A stretch of 64,000 nucleotides of DNA from Gemmatales bacterium (GTDB lineage: Bacteria > Planctomycetota > Planctomycetia > Gemmatales > HRBIN36): the NCBI GenBank assembly GCA_041640595.1, contig JBEPZY010000003.1:540342-604341 (forward strand), written 5' to 3'. This document shows positions 21,390-29,460 of this stretch, piece after piece. Position numbers and translations under genes: made by a program. The notes under the pieces are model-generated. The model did no database searches, was not told the origin of the DNA, and saw only the letters and a program-made list of their open reading frames with translations. The stretch's first letter is position 1; every line of letters begins with the position of its first letter.

Positions 21390-23612
21390 GTGTGCGTCGG
21401 ACACACACACGGGATACTCCGCGCGGGGTGGGAGCTTTGGCTATCTAAAATCGGCCGCTGGTTCCGCAAACGACCATCGCGTTGCCTGACTAGGTTGCAA
21501 TTCGAACCTTTGGAAAACCGTTCGCTGCCTAGCTTGAGTATTCACCTGCCGGGGCCCTTCACCTATCAGGAAGGCGAGTACGTCTTGATCCAGCCGGAGG
21601 TAAGCCATACTCCGGAGCCGGACCAGTGCGGCAGTGGGCCGCTAATGTTTTCCGCCAGTGGGTTACCGGATGGCCTTTCGCTCGATGCTGCTACTGGGCA
21701 AATCACCGGCATTCTGCCCCACAGCCTCGCCAACCGCATTCGTCCAACCCGCGAATATAGTATCACCCTGACCGTCAGCGACGGTGTTGAGACCGCCTCG
21801 ACATCGGCGACATGGACCATCCGCAATACGGACTATATCTTACTTAGTCCCGGCGACCAATCTAATAGCGAAGGTGACTATGTCTATCTTGACCTGCAAT
21901 CGCTTTGGGGTTCTGCGTATGCCGGCCTGAACACCCAGGCCCCCTTAATGTTTAGTGCCTATAATCTTCCCGCTGGCCTAAGTATAGACTCCAGCACCGG
22001 CGTTATTAGTGGCACGATAGATTCTAACATTGCCACTGCGGAACAACCCCAGGTCAACCTGTGGGTTACTATCACTGTCGTCAACCAGGCCGACGGCGAC
22101 ACCTCAACGATTAGCTTCAACTGGCTCATCCAGGATAATCCGAACTTAGAACCACCTCCCCCGGCAACTGGACACGGCCATACGCACACCGGCGGCAATG
22201 GCACGACGGGCGATGACAACACCCACACCGGCGACGACGGGACGACCATCAACGACGGCGATGGTACGACGATCAACGACGGCGGCAGTGGCACCACCGG
22301 TGACACCGGAGCCACCGACGATATGAACGGCCACACGGGCGACCATGGCACTGGCACGACGGGCGATAACAACACCCACACCGGCGACGACGGGACGACC
22401 ATCAACGACGGCGATGGTACGACGATCAACGATGGCTGCAGCGGCACGACCGGTGACACCGGAACCACCGGGGATACGAACGGCCACACCGGCGACGATG
22501 GCACTGGCACGACGGGCGATGACAACACCCACACCGGCGACGACGGGACGACCATCAACGACGGCGATGGTACGACGATCAACGATGGCGGCAGCGGCAC
22601 GACCGGTGACACCGGAACCACCGGGGATACGAACGACCACACCGGCGACGATGGTATGACGGGCGATGACAACACCCACACCGGCGACGGAAGCAGCGGC
22701 CACACGGGCGAAACGGGAACAATTGGCGACACAGGTGGATCTGCGACCACCGGCGACAGCGGTGGGACGGGGACCACCGGCGATACCGGCACAGGCGGCG
22801 ATGACAACACTCACACCGGCGGCGACGGGACGACCATCAAGGATGGCGGCACTGGCACCACGGGCCACAGTGGCAACGACCCACCACCGCAAACCGAACC
22901 ACCACCTGACCCCGGCGGAGGTGAGACGGGAGGAGACGGCGGCGATACGGGTACCGACGAAAATACGAATACCGATGGCGACGACGAACAAACTGACCAA
23001 TTGGACACAGAGCAAGGCCGGCATTGGGACCTTGGCCTGGCTTGGTTTTATCTTAATGGAGCGTTTCTCACCGAGCACGATCATGACGGCCGGATGCTAG
23101 CCATCTCCGTTGTTACACCTTATGCAGATGTTTTGCGCTATGAGTTTGACTTAGATGGTAAATTGATCGCCCTGCACTATACAAAGCTAGGTGGGCCAAC
23201 GGAAAGTGTTTACAGTAGGGATCTAGACTGGGTGGAGGGACCTGAAACGGAATATGATTTTTCAAGCGATTTGGAGCAGTTAGTCCAGGCGGTGAATACA
23301 GAGGCTGAAGAATGGTTAGTAGGCCGTTTCATCCCAACAGCATCCAACTATGGAGTTCAAGGTAACGACAGCGAAATTCACCGGGATAATAACCAGACCC
23401 ATGAAAGTTCTACGGTTTCCTCCCCAGGCGAGTGCGAGTGTGAAGTCTCCTCAGGTAATGAACCAGTTAGCGATTCAGGAAGCAACTCCCAACAGCAGCC
23501 AATTCGACTTCATCTACTACTCCTTTGGAATCCGATCAGGCTAACCACAGCTCCGAACAACCTGATTCGCGAAAACCAATTCTGGAATATCTACGCCTGT
23601 CTAAGGAATTAG
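21390..23612 (+). CDS. N-terminal stalk of a polymorphic toxin: LExR motif, two putative Ig (He_PIG-like) domains, Thr/Gly/Asp-repeat linker; frameshifted near 23489; start uncertain
   Basis: '[13 protein letters not shown]'; '[21 protein letters not shown]' and '[21 protein letters not shown]'; TGDD repeats. Confidence 0.8.
22185..22690 (+). repeat. Coding tandem repeat, 153-bp (51-aa) TGD-rich unit x about 3.3
   Basis: ACGACGGGCGAT(G/A)ACAAC at 22203, 22356, 22509; partial unit at 22656. Confidence 0.9.
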
Positions 23613-25045
23613 GTGTGGGTTGGCTGATCCCCCAGGAGCTTGACGACTGGCTCACAAAATATCAGGATCGTACTTTTGAAGCTGAGCACTACATTTGGTT
23701 TGAAGGCCGCCCTCTCGACCGGAAAGAGGCAGTCAGGTTACTCGAAGACCGCATACGGCGCATTGACGAGCAATTACCGAAGCAAGGGGAGCCTCGCTTA
23801 CAGCCACCTCTCCTGCGTCCCCTTCCAGCAGTAAATCCCGACATTGAGTCATCTCTATTACAAATGCAAAAAGACAGACTCAAGCAATGTGTCGAAGTTA
23901 TAAACAATCCGCGAATAGACTTATCTTGGTTCGCTGTTGACAATGGTTATCTCAGGCCTTTTGGCAAGGCTGCCGCCGATTGGTTGAAGCAGGGAATTCT
24001 TGCCAGGGCACAAGCCCAACAAGCGGCTTTCGAGTTTACTTTTACTTTGACTTTCCTTAGTGTGGCGGCAGTTAGTGTTCTTCCGGGGATGCAATATTTC
24101 CATCTAGTAGGCTGGAAAACTGTGGCATGGTCTGCTGCGGCCGCTGGCGGTTGTGCTGCCTTTATGTCGCTTACAGACCAATTGATCGAGAAATATATAG
24201 AGCACTCCCGGGCAGAAATTGATTATGGACAGATTCTCCTAAACGCAGCACTAGCTTCGGCGTTAGCGATTCCTCTAGCCCCGCTCGGCCCCCTTGTACA
24301 GCGTTCTTTTGCTAATTATCCGAAAACAACCCTTCTCACTCTACTAGGACTTCAGAGCGCACAAACTGCAACCGACGTCGCAGTTCAACTTCACAACAGT
24401 AAGCCCTATCACGCGGCCGCCCACGGTTTAGTCGACACGATGCTTATGGTTCCTACCACGATTGCAATCGCGCGGCCACAACTTCTTGTCAAGAAACCCC
24501 AGCCGGCGCAAACCGTACCACCAATTGTGATCGAACTACCTGTTGACCTGGGCGACCTGAGGATAACTCCGGTGTTCGTGGAGCAGCTTGGTTCCACGGT
24601 AATTCCAGTTCGCATCCTTTCCCAATCGGGTGGCCGACTGCGTGTTTGGGACCTCGGCAACGATGCTCGCGGCCGTATAATAGAGTTAGCCCTGGGGGCA
24701 AATTTGCCAAAGAACTTCGAAGTCATCGATCGCTTCGAGCGAGAAACTGGACTCATCCGCAGCATCAAGAGCAAAGACTTACGTCTGAAAACTTATGAAA
24801 ATAAGCAAACTGTACAGCGTGTGGTTAAAGAGGATATCGATAGGGTAGCTAAATTTAGTGGCGCTGAATATACTATTCGTGCTACTGGACAGCCTATAGT
24901 CATAAGACGAGAGGATATTCGCATTAGGGAGGTAATGCTGGCAATACCAAGTGATACCCCCGAGCAGCGAGTGCTGTGGCTGACAGAACTTATGGAGTAT
25001 GCGAACGAGAAAGGTGTACGCTTTATTATTCAGAAAATTGAATAA
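23525..25045 (+). CDS. C-terminal half of the polymorphic toxin: hydrophobic pre-toxin region plus CdiA-CT (EC869-like) restriction-endonuclease-fold nuclease
   Basis: 'RGRIIE..LG.NLPKNFEVIDRF...GLIRSIKSKDL...Y....V...IDRVAKF.G...I..REVMLAIP...YANEKGV' resembles this PD-(D/E)xK CDI toxin family; Ala-rich hydrophobic helices upstream. Confidence 0.78.
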   Translation: MESDQANHSSEQPDSRKPILEYLRLSKELGVGWLIPQELDDWLTKYQDRTFEAEHYIWFEGRPLDRKEAVRLLEDRIRRIDEQLPKQGEPRLQPPLLRPLPAVNPDIESSLLQMQKDRLKQCVEVINNPRIDLSWFAVDNGYLRPFGKAAADWLKQGILARAQAQQAAFEFTFTLTFLSVAAVSVLPGMQYFHLVGWKTVAWSAAAAGGCAAFMSLTDQLIEKYIEHSRAEIDYGQILLNAALASALAIPLAPLGPLVQRSFANYPKTTLLTLLGLQSAQTATDVAVQLHNSKPYHAAAHGLVDTMLMVPTTIAIARPQLLVKKPQPAQTVPPIVIELPVDLGDLRITPVFVEQLGSTVIPVRILSQSGGRLRVWDLGNDARGRIIELALGANLPKNFEVIDRFERETGLIRSIKSKDLRLKTYENKQTVQRVVKEDIDRVAKFSGAEYTIRATGQPIVIRREDIRIREVMLAIPSDTPEQRVLWLTELMEYANEKGVRFIIQKIE

Positions 25046-25071
25046 AATGAACAGCAAGAAGGAAACATTGT

Positions 25072-28350: not shown

Positions 28351-28420
28351 CCAGCGAGATTGGTTTCTCCTGCGTGCAGCCAATCTGCTCCGCCGCAGAC
28401 CGAACCACCGCCTGACCCCC

Positions 28421-29460
28421 GGCAACGACTCGCCACCGCAAACCGAACCACTACCTGTTGACCAGAATGACCAACTTCAGCTCGACAATGTCGGGGAAGA
28501 TTATGTTAGCATCTATATTGGGCCGCTGGTAGATGATGAAGCTGTGCGGTTGGTCATATGTGTTAGAGAAGACAAGCATCTATATTGAGCCGTTGGTAGA
28601 TGATGAAGGCCATGTGCTTAGCTATACGGTAACCGGTCTGCCGGACGGCATTGACGTTGTCTATGTTGAGGTTGCGGCAGATGGCAGAGAACCGGGTGCC
28701 TATCTGCAAGGTTATATCGCCTACAGTAACGTGGCCAGCAACGCCCCACCGGTGGATTTTCATGTTATCATGACCGTTACCAAAGAAGGCGATGGGAATA
28801 GTTTCCAAAGCGATAGTTTCACGTGGACGATTAGGGACACATCTAGGTTAGGGTCTATATCTGACCAAGTTTCAAGGGAGGGCGAGTTTATTTTCTGGAT
28901 ACCCCCAGTCGCCAGGACGGAAGGGGAGACTTTGGTGATCCATTATTCGGGATTGCTCTTGGGTCTGGAATACTTTGCAAACTCGGGGCTGGTGTATGGA
29001 TATGTCAGTTACGCTAACATTGCCAGCAATGGTCACGCCCGATCCTTGGAAGTCACCATTTTCGTGAACGACGGGACAGGTATGGAGAGCAAAACCTTCC
29101 AGTGGCAGGTTGAGGATACGAACAGGATTCCTGTTTTGCCGGATGTTAGTATTAGCGAAGGCGACTATATAAACGTGAAAATAAATGCTGAAGACGCGAC
29201 GGGAGCCAGCTTGACGTATGCCGCGGATAACCTGCCCCGGGGTCTAAGAATAGACTCGGCGACAGGACGCATTACTGGAACGGTTTCTTATCGCAACGTC
29301 GGCCCTAGAGAAGGAGTGAGGGAATTCATTATAAGCATTCGCGTTACTGATGGCGAGAGCGAGGATATGAGGACGGTCACCTGGACAGTCCAGGATAAGG
29401 ACTGGTGGTCGGCACCGCCGAACCTGACTAACTCAGAGGGCGAGGATGTGTGCTTTGAAC
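28421..29460 (+). pseudogene. Broken cassette: GND-PPQTEP linker copy followed by three putative Ig domains, frameshifted by a 67-bp insertion/duplication and decaying at about 29460
   Basis: 28390-28460 copies 22871-22915 ([10 protein letters not shown]); 'SYTVTGLPDG', 'YAADNLPRGLRIDSATGRITG'; no start codon; the downstream ORF tail runs into repeats. Confidence 0.75.
28508..28608. repeat. 34-bp duplication of coding sequence around a 33-bp insert (period 67)
   Basis: AGCATCTATATTGGGCCGCTGGTAGATGATGAAG (28508-28541) vs AGCATCTATATTGAGCCGTTGGTAGATGATGAAG (28575-28608). Confidence 0.92.

Follow-up and report, generated by a model that had tools for sequence, protein, structure and literature searches.

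Results

A putative nuclease toxin gene and its partner in a Gemmatales genome

We analyzed a 64,000-nucleotide (nt) stretch of DNA from a Gemmatales bacterium (assembly GCA_041640595.1, contig JBEPZY010000003.1, positions 540,342 to 604,341), hereafter called the window, which lies on contig C3 of a 4.45-Mb genome that is 95% complete. The subject of this report is a locus between positions 21355 and 29461 of the window that includes a gene for a putative exported toxin, a candidate immunity gene, and two additional cassettes, all on the + strand. A first-pass annotation of the letters alone had listed its parts, in order, as an LExR motif, two putative immunoglobulin (Ig) domains, an acidic linker, hydrophobic helices, a CdiA-type nuclease, a small CdiI-like gene, and further cassettes. 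These parts are present, but those of the toxin are spread over two reading frames, represented by open reading frames (ORFs) 21390-23612 and 23525-25045.

The toxin gene likely starts outside the coordinates of that annotation, at an ATG at position 21368 that belongs to a Shine-Dalgarno (SD)-like element (21355..21370) and is out of frame with the toxin ORF. From this ATG, 26 codons are read before a stop at 21446. Between the ATG and the LExR motif is an (AC)5 simple repeat (21401..21410), which varies in length and is a candidate phase-variation switch.

The LExR motif itself, which is typical of planctomycete surface proteins, is located at 21501..21521. It was recognized by its sequence pattern, which fits the Gemmatales consensus; its match to PF07595 is below the cut-off (E 0.6), as are all seven matches to this profile in the genome. 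The two Ig domains follow at 21552..22136 (Pfam He_PIG, E 9e-20, in two stretches) and constitute a constant leader that is common to other loci and is 62-80% identical in congeners. Next is the linker, a repetitive region of ~290 amino acids rich in Gly, Thr, and Asp (22146..23003) with 153-nt repeats (D2, D6, and D7); this linker contains the homology boxes for tip exchange. An uncharacterized domain, followed by a Ser/Thr spacer, occupies 23004..23498, and no homolog other than itself was found among 249 loci. This region includes one degenerate YD-like unit (23127-23171) that gives a weak signal of 11.1 bits, versus a maximum of 10.3 bits in 500 shuffles. The original view that the gene lacks Rhs/YD sequences is upheld in that neither TIGR03696 nor TIGR01643 has a match at the locus, but this single unit qualifies it. 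Pfam and NCBIfam searches of the toxin gene also agree with the first notes in giving no match to a Hint, FHA, or PAAR domain. The helical region (23525..24682) has two hydrophobic segments, at 24023 and 24224, that are predicted to form membrane helices and may permit entry into a target cell. No homolog of this region was found in 200 other genomes of the order or among longer proteins.

The C-terminal tip of the protein (24683..25045) is a PD-(D/E)xK nuclease domain of the CdiA-CT o11/TA271/YPIII family. Its match to PF21111 (CDI_toxin_EC869_like; E 2e-14) is above the cut-off, and it also matches PDB entries 4ZQU_A (E 9e-11) and 4G6U_A (E 2e-9). Residues D402, S413, and K415 align with Asp198, Ser209, and Lys211, respectively, with the spacings of 11 and 2 maintained. 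Section 17 of PMC9086364 gives Asp, Ser, and Lys as active-site residues of CdiA-CT relatives, which are Zn-dependent DNases. When an equivalent of Glu177 was sought, a Glu was found to be invariant in three Gemmatales homologs of the tip, at a position beyond the span of the PDB alignment.

The adjacent gene (25072..25575), which lacks a signal peptide, encodes a predicted immunity protein of the CdiI-o11 family. Although the sequence alone matches Pfam CdiI weakly (E 0.075), a profile built with eight homologs matches 4G6U_B (E 6e-11). The top five Foldseek matches of its structural model (pLDDT 87) are all CdiI family members, with nothing else at E < 0.001 and an Atlas score of 0.93. Profile and structure searches of the two genes thus agree with both initial assignments, and the tip and its partner match chains A and B of one solved complex, 4G6U. 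This nuclease family recurs with a similar partner gene in three of 200 other genomes of the order, once behind RHS. On the strength of these homologies, we infer that the tip degrades DNA and that the CdiI protein binds and blocks it in the cytoplasm.

The immunity gene, preceded by the last 28 codons of the toxin, recurs alone 433 kb away at 98% identity (G000 C3:127695-128368; L005:7696-8369). The junction of this second copy is a loose end in the contigs of sequence runs X1, X2, and X3 and is inside a contig of run X9. A congener also carries a 39% identical immunity homolog with no toxin in front.

The two toxin frames are separated by a one-base frameshift at 23498..23499. The window sequence occurs in sequence runs from 15 studies, chiefly hot-spring metagenomes (runs X19-X22, with small shares, were left out of the comparison). 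Contigs from X1 and X2 are identical to the window over 22754-25036, which rules out an assembly error as the source of the break, whereas the X3 and X9 contigs, from two other studies, have one extra base behind 23498. The break is therefore real in some strains and absent in others. Because the extra base restores the frame, the toxin is encoded by one gene, and reading through 23498 with an X yields a single ORF of 1,218 amino acids. X1 may be the source sample of the window. X9 is an RNA run that covers parts of the locus; it was considered as a sign of transcription and set aside, because contigs cannot show this.

Downstream cassettes carry sequences for the exchange of tips

The second cassette begins with an orphan tip (25838..27058) whose frame opens at 25838 with linker sequence and has no start codon of its own. 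This part contains a 101-nt homology box (25925-26025) that is 97% identical to nucleotides 22683-22783 of the main gene, and it is followed by a domain of ~340 amino acids of unknown family that ends in beta strands and lacks a membrane helix. The gene that follows (27067..28350) encodes a leucine-rich repeat (LRR) protein (Pfam LRR_4, E 2e-9) with a signal-peptide-like N terminus as judged by hydropathy, making it a candidate exported immunity protein for the orphan tip. The cassette therefore comprises the tip and LRR gene originally described but lacks its own start. A single-sequence fold of the orphan tip reached a pLDDT of 37, its Atlas matches (phage proteins, attacin/gloverin) are all < 0.9 and serve as leads only, and a complex prediction with the LRR protein scored 0.00, which is no evidence either way.

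The third cassette (28378..29461) consists of a Pro-rich box and three Ig repeats. It is thus present as in the first reading, but as a stub that is frameshifted at its start, is cut at 29461, where the reads continue differently, and has neither a tip nor a partner gene. Contig C2 has a complete cassette, part of which matches these Ig repeats at 96% identity, and the full-length form is represented by P0018.

Rearrangements of the same components are found in other strains. In P0123/L041, the leader continues in frame into the orphan tip (56-59% identical), and the LRR gene after this tip in metagenome locus L041 is 61% identical. Strain L039 has 8 kb of upstream flank in common with the window at 93-98% identity, and there the leader joins the third-cassette Ig repeats directly. 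The L041 and L039 arrangements indicate that tip exchange at the window site is seen in nature. Similarly, an orphan tip of locus C2 is the main tip of P0059.

The leader is joined to many different tips

The genome has 23 strict LExR matches plus two further plausible loose ones, and about 27 LExR genes in all. For comparison, Tuwongella has 52 LExR matches, and PMC8567305 only proposes an export role for the motif. Six toxin loci are present in the genome. In addition to the window locus, these are C2:394-408k (a helical stalk, RNase A with CdiI_2, and WD40 partners), C3:421-426k (1,698 amino acids, PT-HINT, and an orphan Hint tip), C8:40-44k (800 amino acids), C3:611-618k (Big_9-like repeats by eye and two tips with exported partners), and C2:584k, which is decayed. 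About 21 of the LExR genes encode non-toxin surface proteins, so LExR appears to mark a shared export route rather than a toxin-specific machine.

The leader occurs in three of three congeners and, weakly, in three of 26 sister-family genomes (seven of 41 when the genome under study is counted), and the leader of P0037 is 62% identical to that of the window. Behind it are stalks made of multiple Ig domains, of YD/RHS repeats, or of alanine-rich helices. A leader profile search returned mostly generic multi-Ig proteins among the 120 of 358 matches listed, and therefore He_PIG alone is not a marker of the family. A profile for the helical stalk, which is not in the window gene, yielded 100 clusters at 50% identity. 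Among 61 clusters viewed, 46 had room for a leader, and 23 carried LExR; their tips are nearly all different. Pfam searches of 70 of the 100 clusters revealed RNase A once and calpain twice, and HExxH, lipase-like, and papain-like motifs were seen by eye. Among 301 genomes surveyed in the class, seven have the helical stalk, and six of these seven belong to Gemmatales; the stalk was found in none of 400 others drawn from the phylum. Known toxin or immunity families carried on the same leaders are RNase A with CdiI_2, PT-HINT, SUKH, calpain, and M35 peptidase.

The search for proteins with an LExR motif and He_PIG domains thus revealed leader homologs with a wide range of tips, behind which lie genes that are small or encode repeat proteins. 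Together with the match to a solved complex, this result agrees with the first-pass proposal of a polymorphic toxin locus with variable C termini. The accompanying proposal of a distinct delivery class without Rhs or Hint is not borne out in that form, because the same leader carries PT-HINT within this genome and YD/RHS repeats within the genus, and because LExR is found on the non-toxin proteins noted above.

Several database entries in the family (P0018, P0076, P0077, P0037, and P0039) begin just after LExR and bear misleading names such as 'Vgr family protein' and 'dextran-binding lectin'. An out-of-frame position of the true ATG would predict such entries. Cas10-like and RAMP-like genes, identified by eye, are located just downstream of the Hint-containing locus (L003:129-6078; G000 C3:412-418k). 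The genome also has an RHS array without an N terminus (G000 C3:72700-80450), in which a single RHS core gene is accompanied by three orphan tips and their partner genes; one partner is WD40-like and begins with a hydrophobic stretch. C2:266k and C6:43k carry smaller remnants of RHS sequence.

Relationship to known toxin systems

The features seen here, namely a constant N terminus, variable tips, a known toxin domain, a downstream immunity-family gene, and orphan tips with recombination homology, are those by which polymorphic toxin systems are recognized. The closest relatives of the nuclease pair are the CdiA-CT/CdiI proteins of o11 (TA271) and YPIII (PDB 4G6U and 4ZQU; PF21111/PF07262), which are alike in nuclease, catalytic spacing, immunity fold, gene order, and the presence of orphan pairs downstream. 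Unlike contact-dependent growth inhibition (CDI) toxins, the window protein has an LExR and Ig leader and a planctomycete host, and no match to a two-partner secretion (TPS) domain or to FHA repeats was found in the ORFs of the locus by Pfam or NCBIfam. In searches for a CdiB/ShlB transporter and for TPS domains, PF03865 and PF05860 have no match in the 95% complete genome, where the positive controls were also silent, and no match over the cut-off in 41 relatives. Rhs and Hint-processed toxins resemble those family members that have YD/RHS or PT-HINT sequences behind the leader, but the window gene has neither. No PAAR, VgrG, or Hcp domain of a type VI secretion system (T6SS) was found in the toxin, and no VipB sheath gene was found in the genome with a search for which the E. 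coli control was positive; three secretin genes are present. By these comparisons the locus is predicted to work like a CDI or Maf-type polymorphic toxin locus as a broad-sense member of this group, and it is not a CDI, Rhs, or T6SS locus.

MafB of Neisseria, TANFOR of Bacteroidetes, and Microscilla-N proteins are like the window family in having a constant N terminus, a variable tip, a downstream immunity gene, and several loci per genome (PMC3482391, section 37; PMC7073777, section 6), and TANFOR as defined by Jana et al. (PMC7073777) is the closest precedent for a lineage class. The window family differs in that it has no Sec signal and no toxin-specific N-terminal domain, its export motif being common to non-toxin proteins. 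What sets it apart is that LExR export is combined with Ig, helical, or RHS stalks that can be interchanged, with a probable switch by 5′ repeats, and with exported repeat proteins as partners. The planctomycete surface proteins described in PMC8567305 have the LxLExLExR motif (PF07595) and Ig-type repeats in common with the window gene, but here the motif leads toxins, and only toxin genes have an out-of-frame start; the main text of PMC8567305 does not contain the word 'toxin'. Zhang et al. 2012 (PMC3482391) include planctomycetes in their toxin tables and treat LRR proteins as immunity proteins beside type V toxins, with no mention of 'WD40' or of a planctomycete genus in the available text. 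He_PIG and planctomycetes are not among the entries available from Nachmias et al. (bioRxiv 2021.10.19.465003). In the literature covered, mostly outside subscription papers, no description was found of Planctomycetota toxins that are led by LExR or of toxin genes there that are switched by repeats.

These comparisons bear on whether the family merits a class of its own. We tentatively propose, as a possibility somewhat short of even odds, that it is an undescribed Gemmatales-wide class that is exported by LExR, is stochastically switched by AC, TC, or poly-G tracts, and comprises cytoplasmic toxins with cytoplasmic immunity proteins together with envelope toxins neutralized by exported LRR, WD40, or TIGR03067-like proteins. 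It is possible, though we lean against it, that these are simply general-pathway ('T2SS') polymorphic toxins as Zhang et al. understand the term, equipped with a local export motif. RHS and Hint sequences do occur behind the same leader, LExR is generic, and section 37 of PMC3482391 predicts that lineage-specific N termini are widespread. That section names only MafB-N, Microscilla-N, and APD1/2 as leaders, however, and LExR is not a Sec signal. In addition, the helical stalk has no Pfam family and occurs mainly in Gemmatales, and the 5′ repeat is specific to toxin genes.

Tip types correlate with partner types

Among 33 pairs of tips and partners, 20 of the 22 tips without a hydrophobic helix have a partner with a signal-peptide-like start (LRR, WD40, TIGR03067-like, and others), whereas a cytoplasmic partner accompanies seven of the 11 tips that do have one (Fisher p 0.002). 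This rule fits an arrangement wherein nucleases with entry helices are matched by cytoplasmic immunity proteins, and tips that would act in the envelope are matched by exported ones. Accordingly worded, the exported LRR, WD40, and TIGR03067-like proteins are candidate periplasmic immunity proteins. Some points weigh against the rule: signal-peptide partners also accompany four of the 11 helix-bearing tips, the starts of partner genes were set manually and signal peptides judged by hydropathy alone, and p-values overstate the case because the loci are related. One exception is at L040:13818-18386, where the gene after a His-rich nuclease-like tip (by eye) encodes HEAT repeats and has a signal-peptide-like start.

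Most tips match no Pfam family, and many could therefore be non-toxic. Tips of unknown family might instead form variable adhesin or kin-recognition pairs, each a surface ligand with an exported receptor, such that true toxins would be a minority. Many tips resemble small beta domains, ELWxxDGT repeats, or annexin, the partners are binding scaffolds, and phase variation is typical of surface adhesins according to the text available from PMC3711429. Nevertheless, the main tip of the window is a nuclease, peptidase- and lipase-like tips are also paired with exported LRR or WD40 genes, and both kinds of tip alternate in one array, and so we regard this explanation as unlikely.

A repeat tract separates an out-of-frame ATG from the LExR motif

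In ten aligned leaders, a conserved SD-ATG element ~130 nt before LExR is followed by a dinucleotide tract, and the ATG is kept in nine of the ten. The SD match is weaker in the window than in strain L039. The tracts between SD-ATG and LExR are of the (AC)n, (TC)n, or poly-G kind. The (AC)5 tract of the window varies from 8 to 21 nt among alleles and paralogs, and the X3 and X9 contigs have a 2-nt deletion there. In the genome under study, five of the nine AC or TC tracts of at least five units sit between a toxin ATG and LExR. All six toxin loci have a tract and an ATG that is out of frame, versus none of the 18 other LExR genes that have an SD-ATG. These belong to a set of 21, excluding one contig-end duplicate, wherein 18 have an in-frame SD-ATG, three have none, and zero are out of frame. 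Four of the six loci had been found before the tract was noticed.

Related genomes show the same association. The toxin gene is the only out-of-frame case in relative G002 (21 scored of 23 matches). In G017 (23 scored of 24), the toxin gene has a G8 tract and an out-of-frame SD-ATG, and the one other out-of-frame case is a broken non-toxin copy. For G298, 30 of 58 LExR matches were examined and 29 scored. Its 11 toxin-type leaders all have G or C runs, with seven out of frame, two in frame, and two without an SD-ATG. A tract is also present in two other genes, both in frame, and the remaining 16 include no out-of-frame case. Among the G298 genes checked downstream, four are followed by low-GC partner genes, one is at a contig end, and two are truncated. 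A tract-bearing LExR gene of G298 (L244:215-2425, contig C138) has a C-terminal match to Annexin (E 2e-16), which is unusual in bacteria, and is cut by the contig end.

The restriction of an out-of-frame ATG plus tract to toxin genes, along with the occurrence of both states in G298, suggests phase variation, and we consider it probable that the tract provides a heritable switch of this kind. Simple sequence repeat contingency genes are similar in that a short variable repeat lies immediately within the 5′ end of the gene for a surface protein, with on and off alleles in one genome, as in G298. The window family would differ by applying such a switch to interbacterial toxin genes in an environmental thermophile; neither 'toxin' nor 'planctomyc' occurs in the available text of a phase-variation review (PMC11868660).

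Several observations weigh against such a switch. Two of the six loci (C2:584k and C3:617k) were found via the tract itself. All 12 AC/TC-type alleles with an ATG are out of frame, by +1 or +2 (one further allele, G001, has lost the ATG), and so switching on was not observed in the genus, although contigs hide rare variants. An in-frame GTG without an SD is present at 21390, and some tracts have just three to four units. Lastly, the ATG is in frame in L144, L035, and L146, and L145 and L146 lack a tract.

The uniformity of the 12 alleles, which has a probability of 0.008 if frames are random and independent, could also mean that the tract is a recoding site, where RNA polymerase or the ribosome slips in every cell to give a low and steady supply of toxin, or that the ATG opens a short regulatory ORF, with a GTG as the start of the gene itself. 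A two-base slip on (AC)n re-pairs perfectly, and a GTGTGTG run before the tract offers GTG in every frame. Recoding is difficult to reconcile with offsets of both kinds, with tract lengths that vary widely, and with the in-frame alleles that have typical leaders in G298. Moreover, the tract hairpin has a z score below -2 in only one of seven folds and is not significant in the other six, and the TC- and G-type leaders have no GTG run. Hence, we judge recoding or another start to be rather unlikely. It is improbable that the locus is merely a decaying island of pseudogenes in which only immunity genes matter, despite the two breaks in the window allele, the broken first genes at C2:407k and C2:584k, the solo immunity copy kept elsewhere, and the lost ATG of G001, because 800-1,700 codons behind the tract are unbroken at C3:425k, at C8:40k, and in many relatives, the breaks concentrate at a repeat that control genes do not have, and the 23498 break is absent in two studies.

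A proposed model for a repeat-switched polymorphic toxin family

We consider the best explanation, and a fairly probable one, to be that the window carries an interbacterial polymorphic toxin locus of a Gemmatales-wide family whose members are switched by repeats, exported by LExR, and diversified by tip exchange. A point against this explanation is that the entry region offers no homolog to test among the 200 genomes of the order or the longer proteins. From the homologies and gene arrangements described above, we infer export, killing, protection, and switching by the following route. Translation would begin at the SD-ATG, and the tract would gain or lose units by replication slippage, such that the protein is made only in a subpopulation. 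The assembled allele would be off, and this strain would additionally be broken at 23498. The LExR leader would send the 1,200-residue protein to the surface via the general planctomycete surface-protein route, where the Ig domains and long linker would hold out the tip. On contact, the membrane helices may aid entry of the nuclease into the cytoplasm of a neighbor after cleavage. There, the domain would degrade DNA like its Zn-dependent CdiA-CT relatives, and cytoplasmic CdiI would bind and block it. Silent downstream tips could replace the active one by recombination in common linker or Ig sequences, an event whose products are evident at the sequence level. Tips without membrane helices would probably act in the periplasm or envelope and be neutralized by exported LRR, WD40, or TIGR03067-like partners.

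Very little has been described of the weapons that Planctomycetota use against other bacteria. The analysis suggests as new features the six loci in this genome and more across the order, with swapped tips, the repeat switch, and the exported-partner rule. If this model is correct, it would provide a first function for exported LRR, WD40, and TIGR03067-like proteins and a screenable substrate for the LExR export machine, since killing by an LExR-dependent toxin would offer an assay with which to look for that machine. Dozens of tips in these loci are unassigned; candidate envelope-acting toxins are among them, and a partner is named for each tip. If every toxin gene has a repeat switch, single cells of a mat would draw different weapons at random, a form of bet-hedged weapon choice in a free-living bacterium. 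The out-of-frame ATG would explain why gene callers start after LExR and miss the signal.

Genomic setting and neighboring features

As the first-pass annotation had observed, the locus is more AT-rich than its surroundings (GC 0.531 versus 0.606 and 0.591 in the flanks), though it is one among 64 low-GC runs in the genome. In three congeners, a search of the 5-12 kb around the flanking genes gave no homolog of the leader or the toxin. Given this finding and the low GC, we interpret the locus as an island.

Searches of 20300-30200 with Rfam gave no match, and promoter and terminator scans of the locus were not above shuffles. A promoter-like stretch with a TTGAC box (21289..21316) is assigned with low confidence from conserved columns in the ten aligned leaders, the sigma-70 scan making no call.

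Both ends of the island (window 20541-21180 and 29520-29969) have short repeats with a spacing of 66-72 nt. A 30-nt unit at 21085 occurs at nine places in the genome, four of them in or beside toxin loci, and the right-hand units occur at four to five scattered genomic places. CRISPR was considered for these repeats and rejected, because a 36-nt unit is found at five scattered places with never more than two copies and thus forms no array. The repeats could represent an inserted element or a regulatory one.

A second LExR protein of ~1,465 amino acids is encoded at about 8970-13370 of the window (G000 C3:549313-553710). It has an in-frame start and ELWxxDGT-like repeats and is one of several near-identical paralogs.

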